Shown one piece after another: positions 1 to 56,669 of a DNA stretch of 64,000 nucleotides (positions are counted from its first letter, which is position 1; the number at the start of each line of letters is the position of its first letter). The stretch covers positions 1 through 64,000 of the forward strand of contig JAUCBJ010000091.1 of assembly GCA_032718475.1 (NCBI GenBank), in the 5' to 3' direction. A model generated the notes under the pieces. That model made no database searches and was not told where the DNA came from. It worked only from the letters and a program-made list of their open reading frames with translations. This stretch comes from Nemertoderma westbladi (lineage: Eukaryota; Animalia; Xenacoelomorpha). The translations under genes were made by a program, and so were the position numbers.

Positions 1-25
1 TGACAGATCTTATTATGTCAATAAA

Positions 26-12171: not shown

Positions 12172-12890
12172 ACTTTGCTCACCTTAAATATTGTACCAAA
12201 CAGCAGTGGTAAGATTCCGGGGTAACCATGTGTATTCATATAAACTTTGATTTTAGAAGGTTTGTAGTACCGGTAGACGTTGGCATTTCTGATGTACAGT
12301 ATAATACAGGGGTGGGATGCCCGATATACGATGCCCAAATACCAGAAATTAAACGAAATACTGTTACAATTATAATTATACTATGACTTGGTATATAATA
12401 TTCTCATATTGGCTTCCGACACACACTCACACTGACACCTACACGGACAGACTTGGAAAACGGCCATAGTATAATAATTTATTTAACTGACGACATGCCA
12501 ACTTTAGGGCGTTCATATTTACTTAATTGGATAATGGTAAATAGCCTGATTTGTTTTATACAGGGTACCTAGCAACGCCAACTGCCAACAGCTGGATTAA
12601 ATAGCAGTTGCCCTTAAAACAACTAGAGTCACTATTTCGGAAGCCCTTAAAACAACTAGAGGCACTATCCGGTAACACAGGGCCAGTGACCGAACAAACA
12701 AGCAGCAGTTAAATTGACTAACACTGTGGGGCAAGCCACGAAAGTGAGCGTGCTTAGAATACGGGTACCAATCTCAACCTCTCGTCTGTCTAACGTCTGC
12801 CTGTCGTTGGTTAGTCGCTCCGTCTACTCTTTGAATGCTAGTACAGTACAGTAACTCAGCGAATCTTTGATGGAATTATACCAAACGTAG

Positions 12891-14067
12891 TGTAAAAGCT
12901 TTTGCGTAATTAACCGGTTATTTTCCCGTAAAGTACTCTGTAGTTGGTTTACCAGGCATAAAAAGGCCGTGTCCTTACTGTACTGGTGTTTTAGAGGACA
13001 TAAAAGTCATTTCTTCTGTATTTGTACTTTAGAGGACATAATCCGCAATCTCGTGACGCAATAAGCTAGATACTCTTGAAAACAGTGTCGCTACCATGAC
13101 GACGGCTAACAGCTGATATTGCCACGTCGACATTTCTTTGTTTCTTTGTTCTCTCGTTGTTCGGTCGACCAATCAGAGCGTTTTTTGTCTCTGTGTTGGA
13201 GGTGGATACAGAAACTCAGTAGTTCAGTGTTATGTTTTTGCCCAGAGCCTAAGAACACCGGCTTTTGGCACCTCCGTGTTTCAGTCTTTAGCTTAACATT
13301 AGTAGGCTTAATTATAGAGTGTATATCTGTTATCATACCAAAACTCAGTTATCTCAGTTAATAATCATAACATATCAAAACAAACCGCATCATTCATACC
13401 TTAACTTTACTGCTTTTACTGTCGGTTATTCATTATATTTGTTGATGAAATATTATATCGGAATACTGATCAATAGTCAGACACCCAACCTTCTTGATAT
13501 ACTAAAGGTTAGAGAGACCGGTTACAGATAAACGATTGCGACCTATGTTAAGTGGTTTGAAGTGAATCTAATGCTATTTCATAGGCCCGACATAAATTGT
13601 ATGTTGCTCTCTTTATACGTGACCAAATTTAGTGAAGGTCGGCAGATTAGTGTGCAGTATTGTGCAGCATTGTGTATGATTGTAACTGATAACAAAGCAT
13701 CTCCTAAAGAATGCGCCATATACATAACTCTATAGCCTTTTTGTTGTGTCTAGTTTAAGTCATAACTCTGTTTACATATTTAGAGCGCCACGTCCTAAAG
13801 GAACTGTTAATATTTCCCGAAAGTGAATAATATTTGTCAGAGATTATATATTACGATCAGTCGAATAATACGGTAGGCTTACACCATCAATCATTAAGCT
13901 TCCGAATTCAGTCTCCCGGGTATATCCAGCGGGTGAATGATTGCGCATAGACTGGCTTCGGCTAATGTAGTGTATCAAATACTCGTCATAGGCTAAAGAC
14001 TATATATCATCTAAAAGACATCCTAATTTGGCAGGTTAAACTGTCAAAGGTCTTAAAAGCGCAAACA
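12891..14067 (+). repeat. 5' LTR of element A
   Basis: TGTAAAAGC...GCGCAAACA; direct repeat of 42986-44162. Confidence 0.97.
13167..13178 (+). promoter_or_regulatory. CCAAT box in LTR U3
   Basis: GACCAATCAGAG in A; AGCCAATGAGAG at the homologous position in B. Confidence 0.55.
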
Positions 14068-24472: not shown

Positions 24473-24484
24473 TTAAAGGATATA
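24473..24484 (+). promoter_or_regulatory. Non-tRNA primer-binding site complementary to LTR 23675-23686
   Basis: TTAAAGGATATA versus TATATCCTTTAA, 12/12 complementary. Confidence 0.85.
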
Positions 24485-26627
24485 GCTTCTTTATTGCAGT
24501 AAGCAATAAAGTCGAAAGTACCGGTCGACCGGTAACCAGTAGGCCTGACTGCCTGATCATCCGGACCGGTACCTACAGCAGTATTATTCGATTTTGATTG
24601 TTATATACCAGTAGGCCTTAATAATTAATCAGGGACGGCCGCCCTGATTTTTTATTGAGATTTTACTTATTTCTGTCAAGATTTATTTGTTTGTAGGCCA
24701 GTATTGAACAGAAGGCGTGTAAACCTGATCAGATTGTACAGACAATTTGTAGGCTGAGCTGTTGTCTGATTGCTGTTAAGTCCGAACGAATTGCAGTGTG
24801 TGTAGAGCACTTGTCCGATTAAGTACGGTTAGGAAGTAGGGGCAGCCACGCTGTAAGGTAAACCCCCGACTAAAGAATAAGTCGCACTACTGGGTTAGAG
24901 CGCATACTCCCTAATCATTTCGGAGTCTGCATATACCGTAGTTTATTTAGGCTTGAGAGTAGTCTGCCATCGTTTAGTCTGTACTTTGTTTGTGTAAGTC
25001 TGTACGGGTAGCGTATAATTTTATTTAAATAATTTGTAGGCTGGATAGTTGTCTGGCTGTTATTAAGTCTGAACGGATTGCCGCGTGTGTAGATCATCTG
25101 TCCGATTAAGTACGATTAGGCAGTAGGGGCAGCAACGCTGTAAGGTAAACCCCCAACTAAAGAATAAGTCGCACTACTGGGTTAGAGCGCATACTCCCTA
25201 ATCATTTCGGAGTCTGCATATACCGTAGTTTGTTTAGGCTTGATAGTAGTCTGTCAGTGTTCGGTCTGTATTTTGTTTGAGTAGTTTGTACGCGTAGCGT
25301 AATATTTATTATTCAGAGTTTATGCGATTATTCGCAACATTCAAGTCCCTAAGTTTGTTCCTACAGTAATTGTGTTTGTTATACATACCGTTATAGTTAA
25401 ATTAACCCCGGTACTACACGGGCTGCTCGGCGTAGGTAAAGACTGGTGATTTTGTGCATCGGTCACTCCAGCAGATGCCGTGGTTCTTTTAGCTGTTCAA
25501 GTATATTTAATTACTGATTATCTGTTATACAAGTACTCGTACCTAATTTAGGGTTTAGTGTATGGTACTTTCCGAAGTAATCATTGTAGGCATTATATTT
25601 GTGTTGTAAAGTGGTTGATAGGCACATTCGATTAGCTCTATTAACTTCTAGGTAGGAACACTCCGTGATACATAACGTAGAACCTATAGCGATACGGCTA
25701 TAGGTCGTCAGGAGGTGGTATTTTCCTATCTAGACAACGCAGTGTATTTACTACTACTTATTATTTCAAATACCGTAGTACCCTGTCCGCTGTAATAACC
25801 GGTTTTCTAACCCTTTGTTAGGCTGGTTTGTAGACTTCTTGTAAAATTACCCTAAAAATTCGTATTTGTGTTTTTGTAAGATTTTGTGTTTATTTAGAGA
25901 TTGTAATCTCAACCCAAATTGTACGTAATTTGTAGTATTAAGTAACTTAGGTAAATTAGTATTATTTGTTTTAGTGTCCTGTACGTAACACTTCACTGAA
26001 AGCGCACCGCTTTGTGTAGTGATTACCCCCAGAAATAATAACATTTATTTCAAACATTGACAAAACCCATTAAAACGGGTATATATATATTATAAATCAA
26101 ATCTAACGATTTATAAATCGTAGGCCTACCATACAACCATTAGGCCTCAATATCAGTTGGATTACTGCTCAAATAACGGTAATAAAGTAAGTAAAGTAAC
26201 CAAGTAACCCTAAAGTAACAGAAATTCAATTATTTGAAATAATTGATATACCGGTATTTACGATAGGCCTATTATCTTTATTTCTATAAATCTAGGCTGA
26301 AATTATACCGGTACTTGTAATTAATTCTATTTCAGAATTATATATCCTACAAACTGTAAGCTGTATACCGGTATTCAGATAGGCCTATTATATATTTATA
26401 TATATTTGTGCTAAAATTATACCGGTATTCTGTGATAAACCTAGTCTGTAATAATACTTATATAGTTATATATACTATAAGTATACCGGTATTCTAATAT
26501 ATTATATATATCACGCTATACTGAGTAGCAGTACCGGTAATTAATTACTAGACTAGCAGGTAATACTGAGTTACTAGACTTACTCAGACTGTAATACAGC
26601 AGTAGACATTCAACGGTATACATAGTC

Positions 26628-31592: not shown

Positions 31593-33245
31593 CAACATAT
31601 GGAGTGGGTGTGTGACTCTATTATTTTATATTATTATTATTATTTTTATATTTATGTACGTATTACTATGTAATTTTATTATAATCGTTTTATTTAATTT
31701 AGTAGAATATTATTTAGCGATTATTTTGTAGAATAGTGCGATATATTCGTGTTTATTACGTACGTCATTACTTATATTATATTTAGTGCGACGGCGAAGA
31801 GATAATTACTTTTCTCTTTCCTTACTGTCCGTATTATACTATAAATACGTAACAACAGTAAGATGAAATGTCTGTACTTATTAAAGTACAATAAAGCCAC
31901 TACTATATTTAAGTATTATTGGTAGGCAGAGTATTAGGAATGCAAAGTTCAGATCCTCGTGTCTCGGCTAAACCAAGCTCTGGGTAGACCTTGGAAACGA
32001 CTTGCCTCTTCACACTGACATTGCTTCGTGCGATATTGCTCTCATACCGTATATTAAATAATACATATAGTAGCGTGATGTCCCTTTAACAGTAGCGTAT
32101 AACGCAAAATAAATCTGTTAAACCCTTTGACCATCTGTAATTCTAGTCGATTAAGATATCGCGGCACCCACCGATATACTTGAAAGACAAATTCTAGAAT
32201 CAGTGGTTAACGTCCCCAGACAAGTTCTGGAATAAATCGGTGCCCATCTCAAATATTAATTAATTAATATTTGCAAAATCTAATAAATCAAAATCTGTAA
32301 AATTCAGATCCTTCAATAATTCTAGTCAATTAAGATATCGTAGTATTTACCGATATTCTTAAAAAGACAATTGTCATAGAACTAAGGATCTTGTGTCCCC
32401 AGACATGTTCTGGAATCAAAATATGTCCATTTAATTATCAAATAATAAAATTTCAGGGAATCAATTTAAATTCATGCCTTTTAATGAATTTAATAAATTG
32501 CCATTTTTACGCAATTTATAAAGTTCCCAAAATTCCATTAATTAATAGATCAAGGGAGCGGAGATTTATCTTAGCATGCGTATGAGTGTGTGAAAGTCTC
32601 CCAAACATAGTCAATAGCCGATAAAATTCATAAAGTCATGTATAAAACAGAACATTGACTATTAAAGAATTACTATTAAATAACATCCCAGATCTGTATG
32701 CATTGGAATTACTCTAATTCTACCGCTAGCTTTGCATAATGTCACCATAGCAACAACCACGCTAGAATTAGAATTGAGTTAAACTAACAATAGAAAGCTT
32801 GTCCCATTGAATAACATAGGGAATAAATAGTGCACTGATAGTATCCAAGGATACATAATAATACAGTGACATTCTGGAAGGCATTGACTAACGGACAAGT
32901 GACCCGAGTGTGTGTAATTTGTGACAAGTTGTGTGTGTGGTATTTGTGAGTTTATAGGTGAATGTTACTGCTAAGGTGTGTTTACAGTAGCTAGTCGCAA
33001 TCGTAAAAGTAACCTAACTCTCCAAGGAAACCTGAAGTACATCTAAGCCTTTGGGACGGACAGTTGAGTGACTTGTGCCGGTTGTCGTTGTCGTTGTGCG
33101 GCTACGTCGTTGGCGAAAGTACAGCGGCTACGACACATCGGCGCTGAGGATCTCGTACTGTCCGGGGTTGATTGGGGTAGGCAGTGACGCCCGCTCGCCT
33201 AAATATAAACTCATTATAATATGGATAAACTCATATATAGCAGAT

Positions 33246-34323
33246 ATGACGGAGTTGATAGAAGATGGTCTTGTCATCCTATCGATTTACACAATACGGA
33301 CTATGTCGACTATATATCCTGCCCAGCGGAGTCGGAACCATAAACGGAAATTCGAATGCGAAAATTCTATTCGAAATCGACTCGAAAGAAAAGACACTTA
33401 AGAAACAAATGGACGCGGTAACTCCAACGTATATTTGGAATTCTTGATAGAAGCATTGTAACAACAAATAAATATCACCCGCGTTTACCCTACCAGACGT
33501 GCGTCTTTGGTATTATTACGATAAATGCCCTAGACCCAACTAATAAACGGAAAGACATAAACATCCACGTAAACCGAAACTTGTTGACGTATCACCTATG
33601 CTTACTCGACTCGAACGATCCTGGAGTAAACCTACGATCAGAGTCCCGGAATACTCGGTCAAACCTCCTCATTCCTTAGTTGGACCTCAGACCTGCGATC
33701 TTGATGGTGTCGCGGATCCTCGCGGACTGTATTCACTGTTCAAAGATCTAGTGCTACCCTAACAATTAATCGGTAACACTCCGACAGTGATTTCTAGCTA
33801 ACCGCCCATCTTACCTAGCCGGATTGTGACGCGGACACCTAATATCACTATCCAACCGTATGGTCGTCCACGTTTAACGCGATACAACCCCTCATCAAGG
33901 GGAAGGAGAGCGTTGTACGAAACGAGTTAAACGCTATTTTATAAAGATCAAAAAGGAAACCTGCGTTTGTTCAGATAAACGTAAGTTATAACAGTGAGTC
34001 CAATCGATACACGAATTGGCCTTATCTCAATTCGATTGGGAAATCCAGAATCTCTGAGAAGTTATCGAACTTGGACGATCCTATTCTCTGCGAGAGTTTT
34101 TGGATGAACGTATCCAGCTACGAGCGGAGGAAAATCAGCTCGAGGAGAAGCATATCGAAACGGCAGATACCTCGACCACAATCCTACACCTTCTGATGCA
34201 ATCATATTGCACCCTTCACCCAGGAGTTATGGCCCTCCTAGTAAAGTGGCTCCCCCCAAAGAGAAAAAGACTCTTGCTAGCCTCAAAAAACTGCGTAAAC
34301 GCCGTCTGCGTAAGAAAGACTAA
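33246..34323 (+). pseudogene. Relic of accessory exonuclease ORF in B copy 2
   Basis: Near-identical to 3587-4667; deleted and frameshifted relative to 38649..42907. Confidence 0.85.
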
Positions 34324-34401
34324 CTGTTTAGAGTATCTTTATGTTTTAGAAACTGTGATTTTTATATTTTATAGACTGAAAATCCCATTTTCTGGGAGCG
34401 G

Positions 34402-35048
34402 TGTAAAAGCCTTTGCTGAATTGCCCCGTTATTTTTATTATCTTTTACATTAAAATACTCTGTAGTTGATTTAATAAGTGTAAGAGACCGTATTATTGCT
34501 GTATCGGTGTTTTTAGAGGATCTAAGACCTATTTCCTCCGTATGTGTACTGTGAAAGGCATATTTTATGATTCTATGGCAATTCGTGATGCAAAAGGGTG
34601 ATAGCTACTCTTGAACAGTAGTTACTATGACTACGGTTAACAGCTGACATTCATACGTGTTGATTTCCTTTGTTCTACGGCGTCTCTCAGTTCAGTCAGC
34701 CAATGAGAGCGTTTTTGTGGCTCCTTGTACAGAAAATTTCCGAGAAATGACGCAATGCCTATGTGCAGTGTTTACATTCAGTCTTGAGCCAAAGAAAGAA
34801 CGGCTTGGAAGTATTTTTTGTGCTGTACTGCTTTTTAGTCGTACACTAGTAGGTTTAATTATAAAGGGCATATATCCTTTAACTGTAAATATCTCACTGC
34901 TGCAATTTAACATACCTAACGACTACTGCTGACTGATGATCATACATGCTGACTGCTGAAACATTGCAAACTCATAACAATCAGTGTTCAGTAGTTATTT
35001 TATACTGCTATTTACCGTCAGTTCTTCATAATATGGTTGATGAATTAT
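34402..35048 (+). repeat. Truncated 3' LTR of B copy 2
   Basis: Matches the first 647 bp of 23206-24472, then switches to A pol sequence. Confidence 0.93.
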
Positions 35049-37008
35049 GGTAGATACTCCAGACTGGTTAGGTGGACCCGACTTCCTCTACAAAGAAGAA
35101 GAAGAATGGCCTCCTCATCTTACTACAGCAGAAATTAGACAGGCCAAGGGAGCGGAGAAAGTCAAGCCTAAAACTCAGGCGAGTAAATCGAAGTTATTCA
35201 AACCCACAGTAGATCTGTCTGTCCTACATACTTCCGGAGACGACGCTTTGGATCAGAAACCCACAGCCACAAATAAACCCGTTGTGGAAATCCGTGATAA
35301 GGATTGGAAATCTGGCATACCAGACGTCTCGCAAGGACTCTCACCTCTTCTGCAGAGAGCGATACATCACTACAGTTCCTGGAATCGGCTCTGTAAGGCC
35401 GTTACATATTTAAAGAGATGTTTTCACCATCACTACTCTGGGATGAAAACAAAGGGTGATACCGCTCCAATCACATCAGTGCAGGTCCATGTTATTAAAG
35501 ATCTTCCCAAACATAAGATACCCGACAGGTTTCTGAAGGAGAAGATCAGTTATCAGGAGCATGAAGAAACCAACAAACAGATGCTGAGACTCTTACAATG
35601 CTATGAAGATTCCGATAAGTATTTCCTGTTGTTGAGAAATCCACAGATGCGCTTAAGGGATCGTTTCTCTAGCACAAGGATAGATGGGTTGATACGTGTT
35701 GGAGGAAGGTTAACGAATGCCCCATTATCCTTTGATACTAAGTTCCCCATACTCATTAGAAATCTTGAAATACAAGTCAAGATGATTGTAGATGTTCACA
35801 GCAAACTTTATCATGCTGGTAGAGAACGAGTTCTTAGCGAAATTCGAACTCGCTATTATTTTTATAAACCCCGTAGAGCTCTGAACCAAGTTCTTAGGAA
35901 CTGTATACCCTGTAGGAAAGCATTCAGTAGGCCTTTAACACAGAGAGAGGCAAAATTACCTAGGGAACGAGTAAGCTTTTATGAACCACCCTTTACTAAT
36001 ACCGGTGTGGATTTATTTGGCCCTATTGAAGTATATCGTGCTAGGACTATAGTCAAGAGATGGTGTGTAATCTTTGTTTGTATGACTTGTAGAGCCATCC
36101 ATCTCGATATGGTGAACGATTTATCTACCAACAGCTTTCTATTAAGCTTACGACGACAGATCGCTTGCTTTGGCACTAGTAACACGATGAGATCTGATAA
36201 GGGAACAAACTTCATTGGTGCCAACAATGAAATCAAAGCTTACGTCAAAGATTGGAACCAAAGACAGGTGGACGACCAACTACGAGTAACAGCGTCTAGT
36301 TGGACCTTCAACGCCGCCGACGCCCCTTGGTGGGGAGGAAGTTGGGAGAGATTAATAAGAAGTGTGAAGACAGCATTTCATTTTATAGTGCCTTGCCGCG
36401 CTTATCTCACCGACGAACTTTTGCGGACGTTAATGGAAGAAATCGCCGCCTATCTCAACGAGAGACCGCTTATGCCAGTCTCATCGAGTCCCGATTCCCT
36501 GGAAGCGCTAACACCCGCGCACTTCCTACTGAAGAAACCTGTAGCCATGCTCCCACAATCGGAAATCACAGATGGAGACAAATACTGCCGACAAACTTGG
36601 CAACTCATGCAGTTGTTATCCCGTCGTTTCACTGACCATTTCGAAAAACATTATCTGCCCACGCTACAACTTCGAACTAAGTGGTTTGCGCAGCAAGAAA
36701 ACGTCAGCGCTGGAGACATGGTTCTTATTGTGGATGTAGATCTTCCACGTAAGCAGTGGCAGACAGGTCGTATAATCGAGACCCACATCTCGGATGACGG
36801 TTTGGTGCGATCGGTAGAACTCGTCGTCATGCGACGTAACTTCAAGAAACCGGGAATTGTCTTCGAGACGCAGCAGCTCAATCGCCCAGTTGGTCGCTTA
36901 TGTTTACTGGAAAGAGACAGAGAACTCTCCGGAAACTATGGGAGACAAGATACTCTTCCCACGACCACCTCCCTAATCCAACAAACATCTAGGGACTCCC
37001 CAACTTAA
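35047..37008 (+). CDS. Integrase of element A (with duplicated RH-IN linker)
   Basis: HSKLYH..CIPC zinc finger, GVDLFGP, SDKGTNF, WWGGSWER DDE core, LTPAHFL. Confidence 0.95.
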   Translation: MVDTPDWLGGPDFLYKEEEEWPPHLTTAEIRQAKGAEKVKPKTQASKSKLFKPTVDLSVLHTSGDDALDQKPTATNKPVVEIRDKDWKSGIPDVSQGLSPLLQRAIHHYSSWNRLCKAVTYLKRCFHHHYSGMKTKGDTAPITSVQVHVIKDLPKHKIPDRFLKEKISYQEHEETNKQMLRLLQCYEDSDKYFLLLRNPQMRLRDRFSSTRIDGLIRVGGRLTNAPLSFDTKFPILIRNLEIQVKMIVDVHSKLYHAGRERVLSEIRTRYYFYKPRRALNQVLRNCIPCRKAFSRPLTQREAKLPRERVSFYEPPFTNTGVDLFGPIEVYRARTIVKRWCVIFVCMTCRAIHLDMVNDLSTNSFLLSLRRQIACFGTSNTMRSDKGTNFIGANNEIKAYVKDWNQRQVDDQLRVTASSWTFNAADAPWWGGSWERLIRSVKTAFHFIVPCRAYLTDELLRTLMEEIAAYLNERPLMPVSSSPDSLEALTPAHFLLKKPVAMLPQSEITDGDKYCRQTWQLMQLLSRRFTDHFEKHYLPTLQLRTKWFAQQENVSAGDMVLIVDVDLPRKQWQTGRIIETHISDDGLVRSVELVVMRRNFKKPGIVFETQQLNRPVGRLCLLERDRELSGNYGRQDTLPTTTSLIQQTSRDSPT

Positions 37009-38648
37009 CAACGGCTGGAGTGGGTGTGTGACCATATTATTTTATATTTGTATTTGTTTTATTTTTATATTTATGTATGTATTATTATGTAATTTTATTT
37101 TAATCGTTTTATTTAATTTTATTTAGTAACATGTTATTTTAGCGAGCATTTAGTAGATTAGTGCAATATATTCGCATTTATTACGTAATTACTTATATTA
37201 TATATTTAGTGCGACGGCGAGAAATAATTCTTTTTCTCCTTCCTTACTGCCCGTATTACATTATAAATACGTGACTACAGTAAGATGAAATATCCGTACT
37301 TATTAAAGTACAATAACGCCACTACTATATTCAAGTATTATTGGTAGGCAGAGTATTAGGAATGCAAAGTTCAGATCCTCGTGTCTCGGCTAAACCAAGC
37401 TCTGGGTAGACCTTGGAAACGACTTGCCTCTTCACACTGACATTGCTTCGTGCGATATTGCTCTCATACCGTATATTAAATAATACATATAGTAGCGTGA
37501 TGTCCCTTTAACAGTAGCGTATAACGCAAAATAAATCTGTTAAACCCTTTGACCATCTGTAATTCTAGTCGATTAAGATATCGTGGCACCCACCGATATA
37601 CTTGAAAGACAAAATTCTAGAATCAATGGTTAACGTCCCCAGACAAGTTCTGGAATAAACTGGTGCCCATCCTAAATATTAATTATTAATATTTACAAAA
37701 ATCTGTCAAATATCAGATCCTTTAAAATTCTAGTCGATTAAGATATCGTAGCACTTACCGATACTCTTAAAAGGACAAAATTCCTAGAATCAAGGATCCA
37801 AGTTCCCAGACACGTTCTGGAATAAAATTGTGTCTATTTAACATTAAATAATAAAATTTACGGGAATAAATTTAAATTCAGATATTTTAATGAATTTAAT
37901 AAATTGTCATTTTAGACAATTTATAACATTCCCAAAATTCCATTAATTAATAGATCATGGGAGCGGAGATTCACTCTATTAAGTGTATTTGTGTGCGAGA
38001 ATCTCCAATGTATAGTCAATAGCCGATAAAATTCATAGAATCATGTATAAAGGGGATATTGACCATTAAAGAATTACTATTAAATAGCATCCCAGATCTG
38101 TATGCATGAGAATTACCCTAATTCTACCGCTAGCTTTCCATAATGTCACCATGGCAACAACCATGCTAGAATTAGAAGTGAGTTAAAAGAACAATAGAAG
38201 GCATGCCCCATTGAATAGCATAGGGAATAAATAGCGCATTGCTAGTATCCAAGGATACATAATAAATACAGTGACATTCTGGAAGGTACTGACTAACGGA
38301 CAAATGGCCCGAATGTGTGCAGTTTGTTGCAGTTGTGTTGAATTTGTGCGTTTGTAGGTGAATGTTACTACTAAGGTGTGTTTACAGTAGCGAGTCGCAA
38401 TTGTGAAAGTAACCCTAACTCTCCAAGAAGAACCTGCAGTACATCTAAGCCTTTGGGACGGACAGTGAAGTGACTTGTGCCGGTTATCGTTGTCGTTGTG
38501 TAGCTACATCGTTGGCGAAAGCACAGCGACGACGGTACATCGGCGCTGAGGATCTTACACTGTCCGGGGGCAAAAGAGGGGTAGGCAGCGACGCCCGCTA
38601 GCCTAATATATATAAACTCATTATAATATTGATAAACTCATAGCAGAT

Positions 38649-41600
38649 ATGACTGAGTTGATAGAAGATGATCTTGGTATCAGGGAGCGATATACTCTAC
38701 CTTTACAAGCGTTTGTCGATAGCTTGATACGCGGCGACGCTGGTCCAACTACTACGGAGGATGATGGTCGTTATATCGAACCGCCAATGTCCCCGGAGCA
38801 ACTTACGCGTGAATTGGATTATAGAAAGTTCACCGCTCGTTATACGCATCGTAATGGTACGTATATGGACTTCCTAACTACTGGCCACCCTATCGATTTA
38901 CACGATACGGACGATGTGGATACCAAAAGGGAAATGGTTTTATTTAAATATCATACCCAGCGGAATCGGAACGATAAGCCAAGAACAGAACACGAGAACT
39001 CTATTCGAAACAGACTCGAAAGAGAAGACGTTGAAGAGCCGGATAAACGCAACGACTTCAACGATTATCTGGAATTCTTGAGAGAAACATACCTCAATAT
39101 TGCCAGTCAACAAAATCTCGAAACTCGATATCCTCAAGGTATACATCATGATCCTATGATAGAACTCAAACGACTCTATTTCACTATGATGTATCTTAGC
39201 GCCGATCGACCGCTACCTGTTGTCCCAGATAGCTTCGAACAGATGGAGGAATATTGTAAAACTGGAGAACGATCACCCGCGTTTCCTCTGCAGGACATGC
39301 GTCTTTGGTATTACTGCGACGAATGCCCTAGACCCAATCAGCAAACGGAAAGACATAAACATCCGCGGAGACGTTGCGCTAAACACAGTTTTACACGATA
39401 TACTTACGGGAGTTTCGAGCGAAACCTGTTCGACGTGTCCCCTGCGGTCGCTCGACTCAAGCGATCCTTGAACAAACCGATGATCAGAGTTCCGGAATAC
39501 TCGGTCAGACCTCCGCATTCCTTAGTCAGACCTCAAACTCTTGACCCTAATAGTATCACGGATCCTCCCGAACTGTACTCACTGTTCAAAGATCTAGTGT
39601 TACCCGAACAGTTGATCGGTGGCACTCCGGTAGTAGGCTCACGGGACATTCGCCAACCCTACCTAGCTGGATTGGGACGTGGTCATCTAATATCGCCGTT
39701 TAACCCATACAACCGTCCCGGCTTCACCTCTATCCAACCCGTTATGGAAGTCGAAGAGAGCGTCGTACGAAACGCATTAGATGCTATTCGGCAGAAAATC
39801 GGAAAGGGAACGTACGATTGTTTGGAGAAGCGTAAATTGCAGCAACAAGTCCAAGCGGTGAAGGAATTAGCTTTACCCCAGTTCGATAGAGAAATACAAA
39901 ATCTCGAGGAGGACATCGAACGTGGACGAACCTACTCTTTACAAGAGTTTCTAGATGAGCGTCTACAACAACAAGCGGAGGAGAATCAGCTCGAGGAGAG
40001 ACATATAGAACTGGATGAGAGAGAAGAAGCGGCTTTAGCTCAACCCGAAGCGCAAATCCTTATGACGGATCTCTACTCTAAAACCATTCTTCATCCCTCG
40101 ATGGTTCCCCATTTCGGAGACAAACTTTTTGCGATGGCACAACCCCAACCGGTTGATATCAACCTAAGATCTCGAGATCTTATCGCCGACGCTCCTCTGT
40201 TGCAGCGTCCGCCCATCGAATCCGCTCGTGTCGATGGTATACTCGTTGAACCTCCGGACAATAGAGCAGATCTTGTCCGTCGCATGGTACACGATGTAAA
40301 CATACGCGCTAGACCTTTACCGGACTCGTTTTACGGGATCAAAGATCACCCTTATTACGTCAATCTAAAACAATATTACATGGTAAAACCGGAAGATCCT
40401 ACACATAGTCTGAAGTTTCTACCGCTAATAAATCCTCTCGATCTTGTCGAACTCGAACAACTGCAGAAACATCTGGATCAGTTAGTTAAAGTAAACTCAT
40501 TTCGAAAACCATATAATGTTTCCAGAATAGAGAAAGAAACAATACCTCCGTATAATCTTGATGGATTCATCAAAACTCGTTTAGTGCACTGGAATCTTGA
40601 TGTGTTATTCGAGGAGGAAAGAATACAACGATATGGAGATGAGGAAACACATACCACACAATATTTAAAGTATAAAGACCTGCCTAATGCTAGCGAATGC
40701 GCTACCTTGTGGCATCCTGTGGGAATGACACTAGAAAACGCCACAAAAGAGTGGAACGAAACTCTTAATGTTATCGAGATGTATGGAGTTGTCACTTACG
40801 ATAACGAAGGTAGCGTTCCGGTTGGAGAACTTGGAACTACGCGGATGATACATATACGAGGACTCGCTGGTTCTACCCACGTATTTACTCGAGCGTGTTC
40901 CGACGTTATTGATTATTCTTTTGAAACTCTTACTGAGACGCAAAAGAAACTCCGACATGGACAATTTGAACTCGCGCAGCATTACGTCACCGACACCGAG
41001 CGCAAACCGGCCATGGGTATCGATGGATCGATGTTACCCCAACCCGTGCTCGAGATGTTGTTTAACGAAGGAATCCTTAAAATCGGCTCAGCTGTTTATG
41101 GAGACCTACAGAACGACTTTCGGAATATGGAGAACATTCCATACCCCTTCGTTGACACTCAGCTGATTGCTCCTTGGGCAGAAGGCCGAGGTTTCTTCCG
41201 CACTATGTATGCCAATACACCCAGCGGAATTACTAAAGTACAACGAACCTCCATCGGACATCTTGCCTTTCAAGAATACGGATGGAATTTCAAGGTTGGA
41301 AATCCTATAAATTACCAACAAGTATACGGAGATCATTATTCTCGTTTATACTTTGATGGACCATTGACCGCACCTGGCGCCGTGTATAGCTTTATGAGTG
41401 TTCCACTTCGTCCCTCCTTAGCTATATACACGATCTTTGAAAACGCAGCACTTGCCGGTTGGCTAGCCGATGTGTGCAGTCGTACCATACGCGCCCATCC
41501 CTTAATACTTGGAACCAAACTCGCCAAGTTAGATGAATACAATAAATTCATCCGCTTTGAATGTTTCAGGCGCTTTCTGACTCCGTTCCGTAACATTGAT

Positions 41601-42907
41601 AGTCAGTTCAAAGACCACGCTCTGACCAAACTCAGCCTGAGAGACTCAGCGGCGGAGAAGCTAAACAGCGCGGGATTTGCCCTTTTTCAGGACATTTGTA
41701 TACAGAACTTACATTCATCTGTTATACAAAGACCCCGAATACCCACGGGTTATTCTGTCGTCGAAGTTCAGACAGTGGGTCCTCTTGCGGAGACAGCCGC
41801 ACCTACCTCAGCTATGCAATTGGAAGACGAACCAATATGCTTAGAAGCTGAAGCGATTCAACCTACAGCGCCCCGGAGCAGCGATAACGACTACGTCTTA
41901 GAGTGGTATCAAGGTCCACAATGTCTCACTGCATACGATTATCGACACGCTAACTATGTTTCTCGAAAACGTTGTCGATTATGCGCATTGAGAGACCATT
42001 TCACCCCTATGGACTCAGACGTACCCTGCTCCTATTTCCACGAACAACCGATGATGGAGATATATTGTGCGTATTGCAGACTTAATAACTCTCATATTTT
42101 TGCAGTCTGCCCCCAATTTATGACTCAATGCCACCACTGTCAACTTAAAGGACATGCCAGTTATAATTGCCCCTTTAATCACGATTTAGAGAGCGTAGAT
42201 GAAATGATTACCCTGCGCTACATCCGAGCTTGGGAAGCGAACGCGGATTTACATTGTGAGTCCCGTCATCGATACTACCCTGGACGCTCTTACGAGGGAG
42301 TTTACGCGTTCCATCCTTATTTATTAGCGTCTGTGGAACAAAAAACACGCATACCGAGTTACGAGCTAATGAAGCGTGTTGGTGAGTGTATTTCCACCAA
42401 ATTTGTTCGAAGATATCTTAGGAACGTCAACCCGATCCTAACGATATTACTTCATACCATTTGATCAATTATATCCGTCAAGACCCTGAGTATGGTGATT
42501 TATTTATCAACTCGCACCCTGAGTTACAGGAAGTATCTCGACGGCCCTACGAATATCGAGCCCGAGAACGCGAGCTGGAAAGAACTATTAAACCAAGGAA
42601 GTTTCTCACCACTCACGGTCCACCTACCGCCGTTGTCCAGACGACCCGTCAAGGACCAGTAGGAGCTGCTGTCCTAAGACGCGCCTTAAAGGCCGTTAGA
42701 CCTCGCTCCGCTGAAGTTGATATCGATCAACCAGGTACCTCGACCGGCGGATACACCGATCGCAATCCGAAACCTTCTGATGCAATTGTATTGCACCCTT
42801 CACCCAGGAGTTACAGCCCTCCTAGTAAAGTGGCTCGCCCCAAAGAGAAATGGACTCTTGCTAGCCTCAAAAAACTGCGTAAACGCCGTCCGCGTAAGAA
42901 AGACTAA
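38649..42907 (+). CDS. Accessory protein: DEDD-like (WRN/EXD/Mut-7-type) 3'-5' exonuclease domain plus CCHC zinc fingers and basic tail; probable 1-nt frameshift near 42420
   Basis: VVTYDNEG (ExoI), LFNEGILKIGSAVYGD (ExoII), FVDTQ, SIGHLA, LAIYTIFE (ExoIII-like); CAYCRLNNSHIFAVC and CHHCQLKGHASYNC. ORF 42461..42907 is open in the -1 frame from 42422. Confidence 0.72.
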
Positions 42908-42985
42908 CTGTTTAGAGTATTTTTATAATTTAGAAACTGTGATTTGTTATATTTTATAGACTTAAATCCCATTTTCTGGGAGCGG

Positions 42986-44162
42986 TGTAAAAGCTTTTGC
43001 GTAATTAACCGGTTATTTTCCCGTAAAGTACTCTGTAGTTGGTTTACCAGGCATAAAAAGGCCGTGTCCTTACTGTACTGGTGTTTTAGAGGACATAAAA
43101 GTCATTTCTTCTGTATTTGTACTTTAGAGGACATAATCCGCAATCTCGTGACGCAATAAGCTAGATACTCTTGAAAACAGTGTCGCTACCATGACGACGG
43201 CTAACAGCTGATATTGCCACGTCGACATTTCTTTGTTTCTTTGTTCTCTCGTTGTTCGGTCGACCAATCAGAGCGTTTTTTGTCTCTGTGTTGGAGGGGG
43301 ATACAGAAACTCAGTAGTTCAGTGTTATGTTTTTGCCCAGAGCCTAAGAACACCGGCTTTTCGCACCTCCGTGTTTCAGTCTTTAGCTTAACATTAGTAG
43401 GCTTAATTATAGAGTGTATATCTGTTATCATACCAAAACTCAGTTATCTCAGTTAATAATCATAACATATCAAAACAAACCGCATCATTCATACCTTAAC
43501 TTTACTGCTTTTACTGTCGGTTATTCATTATATTTGTTGATGAAATATTATATCGGAATACTGATCAATAGTCAGACACCCAACCTTCTTGATATACTAA
43601 AGGTTAGAGAGACCGGTTACAGATAAACGATTGCGACCTATGTTAAGTGGTTTGAAGTGAATCTAATGCTATTTCATAGGCCCGACATAAATTGTATGTT
43701 GCTCTCTTTATACGTGACCAAATTTAGTGAAGGTCGGCAGATTAGTGTGCAGTATTGTGCAGCATTGTGTATGATTGTAACTGATAACAAAGCATCTCCT
43801 AAAGAATGCGCCATATACATAACTCTATAGCCTTTTCGTTGTGTCTAGTTTAAGTCATAACTCTGTTTACATATTTAGAGCGCCACGTCCTAAAGGAACT
43901 GTTAATATTTCCCGAAAGTGAATAATATTTGTCAGAGATTATATATTACGATCAGTCGAATAATACGGTAGGCTTACACCATCAATCATTAAGCTTCCGA
44001 ATTCAGTCTCCCGGGTATATCCAGCGGGTGAATGATTGCGCATAGACTGGCTTCGGCTAATGTAGTGTATCAAATACTCGTCATAGGCTAAAGACTATAT
44101 ATCATCTAAAAGACATCCTAATTTGGCAGGTTAAACTGTCAAAGGTCTTAAAAGCGCAAACA
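42986..44162 (+). repeat. 3' LTR of element A
   Basis: Direct repeat of 12891-14067 followed by TSD CGTAG. Confidence 0.97.
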
Positions 44163-45427
44163 CGTAGTAATCAAGTACAGTACGAGAATCAAAGACCATT
44201 ATCTTTTACAAATAATAGACAAAATTGTCAAATAATAGTCACAAACTAACCATTGCTTTCTATGGGTCTTTGGCTATTATTTTACACATTTGCCTTTTAA
44301 AGTCAAATCAAGGAGATCCGTTTGACTTTGCTTTGCATTTTCTGTGACAGTTTTGACTTTTTCTGATTTGACGTTTTAGAAATATTTGCCTTTTTAGTCA
44401 AATCTCGCCATCGGTGCTCAGTGGGAGATGAATATAAAATGGAGAGTTAATCGAAATTATTTTTTTTGGGGGGGGGGGGGGAGGATTGACCCAGTGTATT
44501 AGGGTGATCTGGAACCCTATGCTCTTTAATTGAAACTTTGAAAATAGTGATATATTTTTATACATTACATCTACTAGAAAAGTTAATTCCTGTTCTAATT
44601 AAGCCTATACATTGCATAAACATAATACCCTTAGTATAGCGCACTTTTATAATAATTTTTATTCCTTTCGCTGGATAAATATATTTTTACAAAACACCGA
44701 AAGCTCCAATCTTTTACTGAAACATGTAAGACATCGATGAGGCGCGAGCGCTGATACAGTAGTAATCTCACTATACAATCCTTTCCCCCATGCCCAGCAT
44801 ATGTCAGGTTCGCATCAGCTCTTGGTGTCTCGAAGATATTAAGTAAAATATAGTTTTAGATGCAAACTTTATCATGTTATGTTATATTTACAAGATGGAA
44901 AGTCAATGTGGTTTTGTTTTGAGAGTCTGAAATCTACTGCTGCTATTGGGTTAATTTTTCAAAGGAATGAATAATGTGGTGGAGGGAAATTTAAACTAGA
45001 TTTTAGTTCTTTTTAAAAAATTGTATTGTTTTTTTTATTTTAGCGTTTTATCGTAATTGAGGTACCTGATGTAATATTCACCTTAATAAGTACAACCACA
45101 AATAAGTACTCTGATAGAGATACTGTAGAGCGTCATCGTGTATAGGGTTAGGTTAGTCCTATTGCCACATAACATAACAATTTTAATTAGGGTTTGGATC
45201 AGAGCCGCTAACTAAGTAAGTAAGTATTTATATTAATATTACAGTATAAACTACTGTTAATTTGAGTGGTTGTGGATCATGGTATGTTATTTGTTTTATT
45301 CCAAAATTGTAACATATTACTCAACGCCGTTAGTATTAACAGCGAGTTGTTATTTAGCACGTTACAACTTTAGAAGACATTACAGTATTGTATTGGCCTG
45401 TACCTTACTATTGTATTTGGTGTTATT

Positions 45428-45510: not shown

Positions 45511-45995
45511 AATAGGTGGAAATTTGCCTCATAGACAGATAGGCCTACTGCATTACCTACCGGTAGGCGGGGTATAGCTATTAATAACCAGTAGGGCCTA
45601 TATCTATGAACATGGCTCCAAACGCCACCATAAATGTAAACTCTTTGGTATGATCAACCTGGAAGATTTCCTACACCTTAAAACTTGCGTTATTTACCTA
45701 CAGCATCTTAAATAGTCCCAATAGAAAGGTTCTTTTTTTCTTTCATCATTTAATCTGTCTGCACCTTGCAGATTTGTCTTGTGCTTAGATATTCTTCCGT
45801 TATGGTGTCTCCGCATGGCACCTCGGTTTACCACGTTTGTCTTCTCTGAGTGTCTCCAGATACAGTTTCAAGGTCATACGGAATCGACATGGAAAATCTC
45901 AAGCCACCGAACTGAGTCCTGCTAGTCAGTATAAACTCTAATTTTATGGTACCATACTGAGTGGCACCACTGGCTCACATTGAGCTCGCCACTTA

Positions 45996-48775
45996 GTGGT
46001 AATGGACTTTTATAATCTTGATCCAACTGCACATGCAGCATTGGACAAAATAGACCAAATCTCTAACCGCATCATCCGTTGCCACTTCTCATGTTCTGGA
46101 AGACTGGCTAAGAAGTTTCCTAAGGTGGTTCTGATTGTGTGCTACTCTCCAACTAGTGTTGCCCCTGTAGAGGAGGTGGAAAATTTCTACCAGAATCTAC
46201 AAGCAGCTACTGATGGAGTGGATCAGCATGCATTCTTAACATTCTTGGGAGACTTTAATGCAAGTCTGCATCAATCACCTACATCGCCCTGGGTCTATAG
46301 CAATAGTGTTAACCGAAATTCCGTCCATCTTCAGGATTTTATCTCTGGAAATGGATTGTTTTCGGCTGGAACCCAGTTCAAGAAGCGAACTGGAAAGCTA
46401 TGGACTCATAGTGGACCCAGTGGTCACAAGTCCCAGATAGACCATATCCTCTTTCGTAGGAAATACAGGAGCTCTATACAAGACTGTAATGCATTTACAC
46501 TACGACCCTTCTCCAGTGATCACCGCCTTATTGTGGCCAAGGTAAGACTTAGTCTGCGTGCTAGCAGAACAACGAAATCTGCCTTGCCGCGGCATGACTG
46601 GTCCTCTCTGTTGCAACAGCCAAGTGTGAGATCCAGCTTCACATTACAGCTGAGCAACAGGTATGAGGCTCTTGCCTCTGAGGCGGCAGATCACTGTGAG
46701 GGCTATACTGCCTTCACAGAGGCAGTTAAGTTAGCAGCTGCAGAAACAGTTCCTGTATACCCTCGAAACAGGAAACGGGCACCCTGGACTGACAACAAAA
46801 TTCAGAAGTGCCGAAATGACCTCTACAAGGCGCAGAAAGAGTCCCGACTCAAACAGACTACACAGCGGCCAAGAATGCAGTTAAGGCTGCATCTAGGTCC
46901 CTGAACAGGCAGTACTCTGTTAATTTACAGGAGCTAATAAACCAACAGGTTGATGCCATCAATGATGCTGACGACAGCAGGCAATCATCCCAGGCATGGA
47001 GATCGATCAACTTGCTTGCTGGTCGAAAAAGCCAACCAACCACCAAGGTTAAGGCTGAATCACCAGCCGATCGCCTCAATGGTTGGAAGGCCCACTTTGA
47101 AAAGCTCCTCGATAATGACAGGGTATTGCCTGATAACTTTATAGAAGTAAAAGTGTCTGAGTCTGTACTCCCAGATATTCCCATTGGTGATATCTAGTTT
47201 GCAGAAGTGAAGGCTGCTGCAAAGAGCATTAAGACCAATCGTGCCAGTGGAGTAGATGGTGTTCCCCCTGAGGTCTTTAAAATACCTGAGTGTTTAAAGC
47301 TCATCTATCCCATCATAGTAGACATGTACCGTACAACAAGAGTCCCACAAGAAATGAAAACAAATAAGTTGGTACCAGTTCCCAAGAAGGGCAACCTAAC
47401 ACTCTATGGTTCTTTTCGGGGAATCTCATTGATCTCGATTGCTGCAAAGCTATACAATAGAATTCTATTAAATCGCATCAGGGATCCCATTGAGAGACTG
47501 CTCCGTGGAAATCAGAATGGGTTCCGTAAAGGTCGTGGGACCATGGAGCCCATTTTGGCACTCAGAAGGATAATTGAAGAGTTATCAAAAAAGAAAGACA
47601 GGCATCTGGCTGTTATCTGTGTTGACTTCTTCAAGGCCTTTGATTCAGTCTCTCGCTCACGTATGTTCAGCATACTTTCATTATATGGGATTGCTGATGA
47701 AATTATTGCAGCAATCAGATCAGTACGATGGTTCGACAACATTTGTGTCTACTGTTGACGGTGACACAGAACCATTTGAAGTGTTATGGGGCGTCCTCCA
47801 GGGAGACACACTTGCACCATTCTTGTTCATAATTGTTGTTGACTATGTTCTACGCATGTCCTTAGATCGTCACAATGATGATGGGGTGATGATAACTCCA
47901 CCTACTGGCTCCAGAAGTCGAGGAAATCCTGCCAAGTACCTAACTGATCTAGACTTTGCTGATGACTTAGGAGTACTCTCAGAATCACTAGAGGGAGCTC
48001 AACGGCTCCTCAGCTCATTAGAACATGCTGCTTCTAGTGTTGGTCTTTTTATTAACTCCAGAAAGACCAAAATTTTGACAGTTAACTTTGAAAGTCCTCA
48101 GCAAGTCTCTGATCGGATGAGCATAAGATCAAAAGATGGTATGCTTGAGCATGTGGATGACTTCTGTTACCTGGGATCATGGATCCGGAAGTCAGGTGAG
48201 GACCTTCGAATACGTAAGGGAAAGGCATGGGCAGCCTTGAATAGGCTTTCCAGGATTTGGAAGTCACCGAGAATTAATCGGAAACTTAAGGTCCGGTTAT
48301 TTAGAGCAGCAGTAGTTCCAGTACTCCTCTATGGGAGTCCATGCTGGGCTCTAACTGCTGAGGACACCAAATCTCTGGATGGCACATTCACAAGAATGCT
48401 ACGCCGGGTTCATTGTGTCAAGTACAATGCACACATCTCCAACCAGACACTATATAACATTGGAGGTGTCTCATTGGTTCCCCCAAGCTTGACACTAGAA
48501 CAAAATCGCCTCCGCTTTGCAGGACATTGCTTTCGCCGTGAGGACCAGCCAGTGCATAATCTTGTACTTTGGCAGCCTCATGGAGTGAATAAGCATGGTG
48601 GACAGCCCATGACTTTCTTGAGACGCATCTTAAAGGACACTGGCCTTGAAGATGCGGATGATCTAGCAAATGTCATGGGTGATAGGGAGTTGTGGCGGTG
48701 CAATTTTGTCGATAAGCCGGCACAGCATTCTTAAAAATGCAGCTGCAATGCAGCATGCCGATCCTAGTAGTAGTT
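45996..48775 (+). mobile_element. RTE-clade LINE, 5'-truncated, frameshifted EN-RT ORF
   Basis: CYSPT, GDFNA, QIDHI, SDH endonuclease motifs; RGISL, QNGFR, DFFKAFDS, QGD, FADD RT motifs over four ORF pieces; short (TAG)n tail at 48766. Confidence 0.9.
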
Positions 48776-49468
48776 TATAATCTTAATCAATAATAATAAT
48801 ATCTATAAAAGTATAAGTATAATAAATAATACTTAATCAATAATACTCCTAATAATACGAGTTATTTTAACTGATATGATACTATTTGCTTTTCGGCCCT
48901 TACATGCCAAAACCGGCCGTTTTGTATTGTTATTGTATCTTGTTGTTGCTCTTATTTTGTGTTATTTTAATTAATTTGATGTTGCTAGACCATTTTACCA
49001 ATAATAGCCGCCGGGGCGTAAGCCGGATGTTTAAATAAAAAAAAAGTGCTACTTTACACACACAGTATGTAAATAGTTATTACAGTTTTATAATAGGATT
49101 TGAATAGAACGTAATTAATAATCTCATAATGAATAATATTCAACATACTGCCAGTTTAGACTGTTAGATCGGATAGGCCAGCCAGGCCTACCCTAAACTG
49201 GTAAACCTATTTCCTACAGGTACGAGCTACAGAGCTGAGGCAGTATAGTAATTAAGAAGTATACATCGCCTCGGGCCTCGCCGTACTGGCAGACTGGTAG
49301 GCCCTAAATTATTATATTATTTGTGATACAGGCTCATTGTAGATAGCAGGCTGGCAGGAGAACCACTCAATCAAAGTAGATGCTGTGACTAATTCGCCCC
49401 GACTATTCCAAACAATTTGTTTAGTGTATTTAATATTTCAGTATCGGTGGTAGGACTATACGGTTGTT

Positions 49469-50449
49469 ATGGATACCGATTTCAGTACCCCGCCTTTCCT
49501 TAAATTAGTAACAGAAACAAAGAAGACTATTCTTCTAAAAGCTGTAATTGAGACAGGGCGTTTGGATATCACTATAACAGATGGCGCCACTGTCTGGAAA
49601 GGGAGAAGCCAGCCCAGCGAAGTTGAAGGCATGGCGAACGTTCTAGGCATGGACACTGGCGAGTATGTTAGCGAAATGAGACTGGCCATGTCGACTATTA
49701 ATGATATATATTTATATGATCTGAAAGACAACTCTTTTTCTTGGAAAAAGCAAGTTCCCACGGGAACATCTAAAATAAAAGTTACTTTTGGAAGCATCAA
49801 CGTAGAGCCTTGTAAAGATTCCAGTGTAGAGTTGATCGATTTACTGACGGATTTATGCGATAAGATCGTTCTACTGAACCTGGAAGTCGGAGAATTGGGT
49901 TGTCAGAAGAAACAGTTAGCAGCAGATAGACAGAAAGCCGTAGATTTCGTTAAAACTCGAGTCCTTTCTAAAGAGGAAATGGAAAATAATTTGTTATCTA
50001 AATTCCTTCTCGTGTTGAACGCCAAGAAAGAAAGAATTCGCGAACTTGAAAACGAGTTGGAATTACTTAAACGAGAAAATAAAACCGAGATGAAAGAAAC
50101 TGAATCTACCGGTTCTCCGCGGACCGATTACGTTGCTAAGGAGACAGAATACCCCAGCGATTTTGATACAGACGACGAGAAAGAATCGGCCAGCATTAAG
50201 TCTCGTCTCGCCGCCGCTGAAAGTCGCCCGTTCCAGGTTGGCAGCTCTGCTGTAGTAGACATTGTCCAATCAGGGTCAAGGGATATCGTTAAACGTAAGA
50301 GAGTGAGAGTCTGTCCCCCAGCTGTAGCTGTTAGTCGCCGACAACCAATAGAAACTCAGCAACCACAGCCACAGACAATTAAGCAAATAGACCAATCAAC
50401 GGAGGATACATTGTGTCTATCTACCACCGACCTAATACACGATTTATAA
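49469..50449 (+). CDS. XRCC4: DNA repair protein XRCC4 (intronless)
   Basis: ITDGATVWKG head domain, FSWKK, coiled coil KEEMENNLLSKFLLVLNAKKERIREL, acidic TDDE tail. Confidence 0.9.
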   Translation: MDTDFSTPPFLKLVTETKKTILLKAVIETGRLDITITDGATVWKGRSQPSEVEGMANVLGMDTGEYVSEMRLAMSTINDIYLYDLKDNSFSWKKQVPTGTSKIKVTFGSINVEPCKDSSVELIDLLTDLCDKIVLLNLEVGELGCQKKQLAADRQKAVDFVKTRVLSKEEMENNLLSKFLLVLNAKKERIRELENELELLKRENKTEMKETESTGSPRTDYVAKETEYPSDFDTDDEKESASIKSRLAAAESRPFQVGSSAVVDIVQSGSRDIVKRKRVRVCPPAVAVSRRQPIETQQPQPQTIKQIDQSTEDTLCLSTTDLIHDL

Positions 50450-56617: not shown

Positions 56618-56669
56618 TTTGACAAGGTTATTGATAAGTAATTACTATTCTTACTGCTGTCTGGCTGTA

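Follow-up and report, generated by a model that had tools for sequence, protein, structure and literature searches.

The window analysed here, i.e. the whole stretch of 64,000 nucleotides at positions 1 to 64,000 (forward strand) of contig JAUCBJ010000091.1 from Nemertoderma westbladi (GenBank assembly GCA_032718475.1), is rich in copies of one family of BEL/Pao long terminal repeat (LTR) retrotransposons. One of these copies carries a third long open reading frame (ORF3) behind pol, and it is this gene that is described in the following. Judging from profile, motif and language-model comparisons, the second half of the ORF3 protein is very probably a highly diverged homologue of the PF01612 exonucleases (RNase D/WRN type, DEDDy), and behind this exonuclease-like domain lie three zinc knuckles and a conserved C-terminal module, with a basic tail at the end.

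The BEL/Pao element and its third reading frame

The host of ORF3 is a BEL/Pao LTR retrotransposon. Its two LTRs, which run from TG to CA, are 99.7% identical (self-BLAST, 12890-14067 versus 42985-44162) and are bordered by a duplication of five bases, the combination of ends and duplication by which LTR retrotransposons are recognized, and Pfam finds the hallmark domains of BEL/Pao elements in the other ORFs (DUF1759 in gag with E values of 8.2e-11 and 4.6e-13, Peptidase_A17 in pol with 1.8e-36). The integrase ORF at 35044-37008 continues the phase of the pol ORF at 19858-23223 across a duplicated stretch of 773 bases, as can be read from the coordinates, and the order from there on is integrase, a 1.6-kb spacer, ORF3, a purine run and the 3' LTR. 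Summed from the coordinates, and after subtraction of a related copy nested within it, the ORF3-bearing element is ~18.7 kb long. Scans of the window for Rfam families and for tRNAs returned no match. The parts of the element that matter for ORF3 are the following:

12886..12890, + strand: target-site duplication CGTAG, 5' copy, identical to the five bases at 44163-44167
12891..14067, + strand: 5' LTR (TG...CA) of the ORF3-bearing element, located by self-BLAST, with its ends read from the sequence
35044..37008, + strand: integrase part of pol (Integrase_H2C2, E 1.7e-7; DUF5641, E 3.5e-20)
37009..38648, + strand: spacer of 1.6 kb between pol and ORF3, without a + strand ORF of 100 codons
38649..42464, + strand: main frame of ORF3, 1271 codons from the first ATG (ORF reading)
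42422..42907, + strand: tail frame of ORF3, 161 codons in another phase, ending in the basic run KKLRKRRPRKKD (ORF reading)
42422..42464, + strand: overlap of both frames, i.e. the break of ORF3 in the window copy (frame reading, contigs of DNA runs)
42978..42985, + strand: purine run GGGAGCGG adjoining the 3' LTR, in the position of a polypurine tract and presumably acting as one (sequence reading)
42986..44162, + strand: 3' LTR, located by self-BLAST, with its ends read from the sequence
44163..44167, + strand: target-site duplication CGTAG, 3' copy (sequence reading)

Read from stop to stop, the main frame of ORF3 covers 38616..42464 (+ strand) and 1282 codons, with the first Met as residue 12 at 38649; at the local base composition, the chance of so many stop-free codons is 2.8e-31. 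At ~42430, the majority of the contig depth in two DNA runs (8589.5 of 11489.8 in run X1, 6771.5 of 9418 in run X3) differs from the window by a short indel that is not a multiple of three, and with this small difference in length the two frames therefore become one in most copies. The tail frame is under purifying selection among the copies, with 21 of the 27 variable places downstream of the break falling on its codon position 3 (P=2.9e-6). Because most of the depth is single-frame and variation shows this third-position bias, a length of ~1420 codons is valid for the family, and it is the window copy that is defective; the frame break is private to this copy or to a minority of copies. Programmed frameshifting at 42422-42464 was considered and rejected, as no slippery heptamer was seen there and most copies are single-frame. 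A natural end of ORF3 at 42464, suggested by a resemblance to the C-terminus of a distant homologue (P0004, see below), is likewise rejected by the copy depth and the third-position bias.

These results agree with the initial annotation, which had reported an ORF of 1271 amino acids between integrase and the 3' LTR, had expected ~1420 amino acids once the frameshift was repaired (correct for the family, by the majority contig depth in X1 and X3) and had pointed out that the gene occupies the position of env without resembling it. Env-like ORF3s are found in BEL/Pao elements, e.g. in nematode Cer and Tas, also between integrase and the 3' LTR. The window ORF3 is like these in position, but has neither a signal peptide nor a membrane anchor nor features of fusion proteins. 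That signal peptide and transmembrane segment are missing had also been stated before, and neither was seen in a hydropathy scan with 19-residue windows or in the N-terminus, which is acidic; the most hydrophobic of these windows has a Kyte-Doolittle mean of 1.19 and lies in the helix of the ExoIII block described below. The first ~690 residues have no relatives outside the family and include an acidic stretch at about residues 400-480 with a high content of Glu, Gln and Leu.

The exonuclease-like domain and the zinc knuckles

A phmmer search with residues 629-1282 of the window protein (P0001) against 1.84 billion representative proteins gave two matches, P0003 (648 amino acids; E 1.5e-6 over the stretch from the motif block ExoII to ExoIII) and P0004 (633 amino acids; E 6.4e-4 over the knuckles and the C-terminal module, query residues 426-614). 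Both have the same layout as ORF3, i.e. an exonuclease-like domain, three Cys-Cys-His-Cys (CCHC) knuckles and a conserved module (E..A......R.R........G...F), and the window protein and P0003 are only 24% identical. In P0004 (locus L001, 79-2025), the knuckle and C-terminal module are duplicated. Word-index protein searches added no relative, with none among 4024 candidates for P0001, P0003 itself alone among 7989, and none among 5443 for the family profile A2 (E up to 10). A metagenome scan with 141 pattern matches contained a single relative, which was P0004's own contig of 3685 bases, too short to show a retroelement context, and none of 38 pattern matches in viral contigs was confirmed as a relative. 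Within ORF3, the following parts can be delimited:

40758..41495, + strand: exonuclease-like domain, residues ~715-960 of P0001 (language-model neighbours, RNase D models of NCBIfam, hhalign, block ranks)
40800..40808, + strand: candidate ExoI, D729-N-E731, with VIDYS (D766) as an alternative (block ranks, hhalign; ambiguous)
41067..41171, + strand: ExoII block (EGILKIGSAVYGDLQNDF, Asp830) and P-x-V-D-T-Q block (block ranks, RNase D models)
41400..41456, + strand: ExoIII block, VPL-x3-L-x2-Y939-x3-E943 (block ranks)
41973..42170, + strand: three CCHC zinc knuckles, residues 1120-1185 (C-x2-C...H...C pattern at 1120, 1151 and 1172)
42234..42362, + strand: C-terminal module E1207...Y1249, conserved and without a known family, downstream of the knuckles (alignment A1, match to P0004)
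40011..42744, + strand: part of ORF3 with exonuclease-like domain, knuckles and C-terminal module that is absent from the copies at 1-5998 and 24473-35048 (self-BLAST)

As a reference for PF01612 we used 29 bacterial domains (from 30 loci in 61 bacterial genomes, one incomplete locus being left out). Aligned to these by hhalign, the three-sequence family alignment obtained a score of 31.5 (P=0.0012) over the region from ExoI to the DTQ block. None of 267 column shuffles (38 + 229, with maxima of 18.4 and 19.5) reached this score, the reversed query scored 10.7, and as single sequences the window protein and P0003 gave P=0.0077 and 0.0043, respectively. Sub-threshold matches to family models coincide at ExoII: window residues 809-853 are recognized by two RNase D models of NCBIfam, TIGR01388 (E 0.02) and NF008089 (E 0.045), over the ExoII-containing model positions 60-109, and P0003 aligns with positions 64-106 of PF01612 (E 0.2). 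Among language-model neighbours, PF01612 was found in 24 of 30 matches for window residues 640-1010 (scores 0.91-0.92) and in 25 of 30 for residues 1-300 of P0003 (scores 0.94-0.95, with 172-184 shared features).

Block scans, i.e. ungapped score tables for each motif block, resolve the same region at the level of single motifs. The ExoII and DTQ blocks both rank first in the whole protein, in the window protein as well as in P0003, and lie 24 residues apart, as they do in RNase D. The 19-residue ExoIII block is placed third among 1264 positions in the window protein and first among 630 in P0003; it reads P-L-x3-(L/Q)-x2-Y-x3-E, versus P-L-x3-Q-x2-Y-x3-D in RNase D. The ExoI core block ranks first among 642 positions in P0003, where it reads D-V-E, and has two placements in the window protein, D729-N-E731 (rank 5 of 1276, hhalign score 31.0) and D766-Y-S (rank 19 of 1276, hhalign score 31.5). 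All motifs named in the initial annotation could be located, VVTYDNEG at residue 725, ILKIGSAVYGD at 820, FVDTQ at 845, SIGHLA at 879 and IYTIFE at 937. Its claim that they follow the ExoI/II/III spacing can be upheld for ExoII and ExoIII, which stand in canonical order by their block ranks, but not without reservation for ExoI, as VVTYDNEG is one of two equally scoring placements. Its reading of Glu at the last Asp position is supported by the ranks of the ExoIII block, and the kinship with WRN-type exonucleases that it proposed is supported, for the second half of the protein, by profile comparison, block ranks and language-model neighbours alike.

If this assignment is correct, the domain would be expected to adopt a DnaQ-like fold, in which D729/E731, D830 and Y939/E943 would form the active site. 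Its ExoII, P-x-x-D-T-Q and P-L-x3-Q-x2-Y-x3-acid blocks are ordered and spaced as in RNase D, WRN-exo and Rrp6 (PF01612), with the candidate ExoI sites ahead of them; unlike these enzymes, the domain has one insertion of ~35-40 residues close to ExoI and a further one ahead of ExoIII, carries Glu in place of the ExoIII Asp and scores below the Pfam cut-off, and no HRDC domain was found. For the latter, residues 941-1115 (together with P0003 236-345) were compared by hhalign with 22 full-length RNase D proteins (P=0.33 and 0.55), and Pfam reported no HRDC either. Since Glu takes the place of the last Asp, we do not count the domain among the DEDD exonucleases in the strict sense. In PHROGs, an 'exonuclease' family appeared at E 0.32 only.

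A number of results weigh against this interpretation of ORF3 and have to be set beside the evidence given so far. Pfam assigned no family to ORF3 at E 0.01, and at E up to 10 it returned no PF01612 for the window protein, only zf-CCHC_3 (0.032) and a ZNF451 finger (0.51). Scores stay below the family cut-offs, with 11.9 bits for P0003 against the 23.6 bits of PF01612 and with 14.2 and 12.8 bits for the window protein in the RNase D models of NCBIfam, far short of what these require, and sequence and profile searches of the PDB yielded no exonuclease. AlphaFold2 gave a pLDDT (predicted local distance difference test) of 30.7 from the single sequence and of 34.0 from the three-sequence alignment, and both models are unusable. 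The hhalign 'probability' is 19%, P0004 alone gives P=0.062, and hhalign put the ExoIII sub-alignment elsewhere than at ExoIII. In the first block scan, the ExoI blocks and a longer (22-residue) ExoIII block were not top-ranked. The second placement of ExoI reads D-Y-S instead of D-x-E, and the last acidic residue is Glu and not Asp (Y-x3-E) in the window protein as well as in P0003. In P0004 there is no ExoIII block, no Glu in ExoI and no Asp in ExoII, and catalysis is therefore dispensable in at least one relative. As to selection, the figures on third-position bias cover the tail and the 130 bases before the break, and in these 130 bases it is weak (6 of 12 variable places on the third position).

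Behind the domain stand three nucleocapsid-type knuckles. The third is canonical (C-x2-C-x4-H-x4-C), the first two read C-x2-C-x4-H-x9-C and C-x2-C-x5-H-x4-C, and the Cys/His columns are invariant across the three homologues. In the PDB, the tandem knuckles of P0003 match the nucleocapsid protein NCp7 of human immunodeficiency virus type 1 (HIV-1; E 1.1e-4) and Air2 (E 0.064); those of the window protein found no nucleocapsid match there, and in Pfam they reach no more than the zf-CCHC_3 value given above. Tandem C-x2-C-x4-H-x4-C knuckles are common to ORF3, retroviral nucleocapsid and Air2 of the TRAMP complex, with the difference from nucleocapsid that two of the three window knuckles have an altered spacing. 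The knuckles of Air2 work beside an RNase D-type nuclease, Rrp6. The ORF3 knuckles are unrelated to the knuckles of the element's own gag (E 0.29). They may be expected to bind nucleic acid. In the C-terminal module, seven columns of alignment A1 are invariant (E579, A582, R589, R591, G600, F604 and Y621), and the basic run KKLRKRRPRKKD at the end of the tail frame looks like a nuclear signal. Tandem CCHC fingers followed by a basic tail, as annotated initially, are thus present, with the fingers being three in number.

Copies of the element and its surroundings

Two further copies in the window, at 1-5998 and 24473-35048, are 96.6% alike (self-BLAST) and lack the reverse-transcriptase part, most of integrase and ORF3 40011-42744. 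Both retain residues 89-498 of ORF3 (~50% identity) and its tail (78% amino-acid identity) in the same position, and the spacer at 37009-38648 is 87-88% identical to both of them. The deletion joints 35162->36879 and 40010->42772/42773 recur in contigs of independent DNA runs (X1 and X3 for the ORF3 joint). Every joint in a further run, X5, which may be RNA, is likewise present in DNA runs. Because the derivatives keep parts of ORF3 in place and their joints recur in independent DNA runs, ORF3 is taken to belong to the family as an integral gene, and the nuclease-less forms are taken to be deletion derivatives. In the source genome the family reaches an extreme abundance (64,588 contig pieces in run X1), with a depth in the DNA runs that is 3-10x higher over spacer and LTR than over ORF3, and the copies without nuclease look like an abundant non-autonomous derivative family.

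The nested related copy that interrupts the ORF3-bearing element consists of an LTR (23206-24472), an internal part and a second LTR ending at 35048 (self-BLAST). It sits in the integrase region, and its 3' LTR stops after 647 bases at 35048, directly followed by an exact repeat of the 773 bases of 22433-23205 (100% identity; regions 22433-23852 and 34402-35820). The nested copy is flanked by this 773-base direct duplication and not by a five-base one; recombination, template switching or an assembly artefact could have produced it. Gag and protease form a single frame of 1665 codons in the nested copy, and in the ORF3-bearing copy gag is interrupted by an in-frame stop codon (16934-16936) and does not share the phase of pol. 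In both copies (16277-19726 and 26595-31592), gag has an extension of ~800 residues ahead of DUF1759, in which 21-base repeats (17493-17657 and 27790-28017) encode a stretch rich in Ala, Glu and Lys.

A short stretch that can form a hairpin, ATTGCTT...AAGCAAT, directly follows the 5' LTR (14068-14110 and 24473-24510) and is common to the nuclease-bearing copy and a copy without nuclease; its loop varies between the two copies and its flanks are conserved. The spacer between pol and ORF3 contains a repeated 90-base unit (37519-37608 and 37684-37773; also 2442-2709 and 32097-32365), which is present in all three copies (repeat family D17); no other part of the element is as abundant in the DNA runs.

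Outside the ORF3-bearing element, a tandem array at 9902-12225 comprises more than 70 units of 21-23 bases (55% G+C, GC skew -0.77), and all three + frames are open there solely owing to the repeat. Genes of host type occur as single long frames that encode Slu7 (7137-8894; 1.8e-87), an XRCC4-like protein (49454-50449) and a PWI-CCCH-RRM protein (53903-56641, - strand), the last of these within an island of 61% G+C. Among them lies the remnant of a non-LTR retrotransposon, with an endonuclease at 45984-46904 and a reverse transcriptase at 47574-48734.

Relation to known systems and possible functions

A DEDDy ORF3 as such is not a new kind of gene, because RNase D-like DEDDy ORF3s were described in 2017 in the LTR retrotransposons Juno1/2 and Vesta2/5 of bdelloid rotifers and in Athena/Terminon Penelope-like elements (Rodriguez, Kenefick & Arkhipova 2017, PMC5408684). 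The novelty implied by the initial annotation was thus overstated, since DEDDy ORF3s without membrane or coiled-coil segments had already been published there for other LTR lineages. In the ORF3s of that study, DEDD is changed to DEED, membrane and coiled-coil segments are missing, a Cys-His-Cys motif occurs in some members, and no function is known, with 3'-end processing having been proposed. A 2019 opinion paper (PMC6338049) also counts a DnaQ-like exonuclease among the accessory domains that are known. Measured against the description in PMC5408684, the window ORF3 resembles its rotifer counterparts in having no membrane features of an envelope protein, in the replacement of one acidic DEDD position by Glu and in a zinc motif of Cys and His. 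It differs from them in its host, which is BEL/Pao rather than a member of the Juno, Vesta, TelKA or Mag clades, and in its pattern, D-E-D-E instead of DEED. The rotifer proteins are said there to have 'strong homology' to DEDDy enzymes, whereas the window domain lies below every Pfam and NCBIfam threshold. Features of the window ORF3 that go beyond this description are its ~690 N-terminal residues, the three knuckles of nucleocapsid type, the conserved C-terminal module and the basic tail. What is new here is the BEL/Pao host, the extreme divergence, the three knuckles, the long N-terminal region and the fact that no HRDC was found. Literature searches, with subscription journals lying outside their coverage, turned up no publication that describes an exonuclease ORF in a BEL/Pao element.

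On balance, we consider it somewhat more probable than not that this BEL/Pao ORF3, with its diverged DEDDy domain and its knuckles, encodes a protein that likely binds single strands and would trim 3' ends. As a non-membrane protein of ~1,420 codons, with a diverged DEDDy nuclease half, three knuckles and a basic tail, it would attach to single-stranded RNA or complementary DNA (cDNA) of the element through its knuckle array, and the nuclease domain would trim 3' ends in the course of the element's own replication cycle. The protein would probably act in the nucleus and most likely in trans and, if so, the abundant derivatives without the gene could use it. The 3'-end-processing role on the element's own nucleic acids, taken by itself, is put forward as a tentative suggestion, which is consistent with the combination of domains; primer trimming, as proposed in the initial annotation, would be one version of it.

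Other roles are conceivable for a protein of this composition. The exonuclease-like domain could be catalytically dead, with the protein serving as an RNA/cDNA-binding or chaperone factor by means of its knuckles and a nuclease-derived fold, similar to Maelstrom and EXD1, i.e. inactive DEDD derivatives that keep RNA binding according to PMC5408684. P0004, which has lost its catalytic motifs and yet has duplicated its knuckle and C-terminal module, fits such a factor, as do the Glu for Asp in ExoIII of the window protein and P0003 and the one of the two window ExoI placements that has no Glu. We nevertheless regard a dead domain as rather unlikely, as the VVTYDNEG placement of ExoI fills the five positions with D, E, D, Y and a further acidic residue, P0003 carries D-x-E, D and Y-x3-E, Glu can bind metal, and P0004 may be merely a decayed copy. 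A second possibility, also raised in the initial annotation as an anti-piRNA factor, would be a counter-defence factor that degrades or trims host small RNAs (the 3' ends of PIWI-interacting or small interfering RNAs) or other sensing RNAs, by analogy with the DEDD exonucleases with which some RNA viruses weaken the responses of their hosts. Small RNAs are the targets of Nibbler and Mut-7, and among viral DEDD enzymes arenavirus NP and nidovirus ExoN have zinc sites. For ORF3 itself, this role would draw only on the domain assignment and the basic tail, and on the extreme abundance of the family; the nuclease-less derivatives are the commoner ones, as the depth over spacer and LTR indicates, which would fit any trans-acting protein equally, and in the elements covered by PMC5408684 DEDDy ORF3s have no clear link to copy number. 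We therefore hold counter-defence to be improbable.

At the level of the domain itself, the resemblance to exonuclease motifs might be coincidental, and ORF3 might be a degenerate envelope gene or encode an orphan protein with a different fold. The want of a Pfam or PDB match, of a confident AlphaFold model and of a higher hhalign probability would be in line with this. Against it stand the profile-profile score that no shuffle attains, the four motif blocks that reach ranks 1 to 5 among more than 1260 positions and keep the canonical order and ExoII-DTQ spacing in two proteins of so little identity, and the independent sub-threshold matches of RNase D and PF01612 models to the same motif, with which the language-model neighbours agree; an envelope protein would moreover be at odds with the missing membrane helix and signal peptide. 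Coincidence is thus highly improbable. A speculative extension of the nuclease reading, to which we give a very slim chance, is that the enzyme is a trans-acting partner of reverse transcriptase in 3'-end repair or proofreading, permitting the unusually large genome of this LTR retroelement (~18.7 kb). It would then be the retroelement counterpart of the zinc-bearing nidovirus ExoN, and such a function would explain why DEDDy domains have been taken up by three unrelated classes, i.e. Juno/Vesta, the giant Athena/Terminon elements and BEL/Pao.

Returning to the reading of ORF3 as a diverged DEDDy nuclease, BEL/Pao would, if the domain call holds, be a third class of retroelements to have independently taken up a 3'-5' exonuclease, besides Juno/Vesta and Athena, and the nuclease would here be fused to nucleocapsid-like knuckles. 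Such repeated capture argues that processing of single-stranded 3' ends is a useful step in the replication of retroelements or in their escape from silencing. As a divergence that leaves two relatives among 1.84 billion proteins defeats standard domain annotation, similar genes have probably been overlooked in other animal genomes. Within the family described here, comparison with the abundant copies without nuclease provides a natural way to ask whether the ORF3 protein acts in trans.

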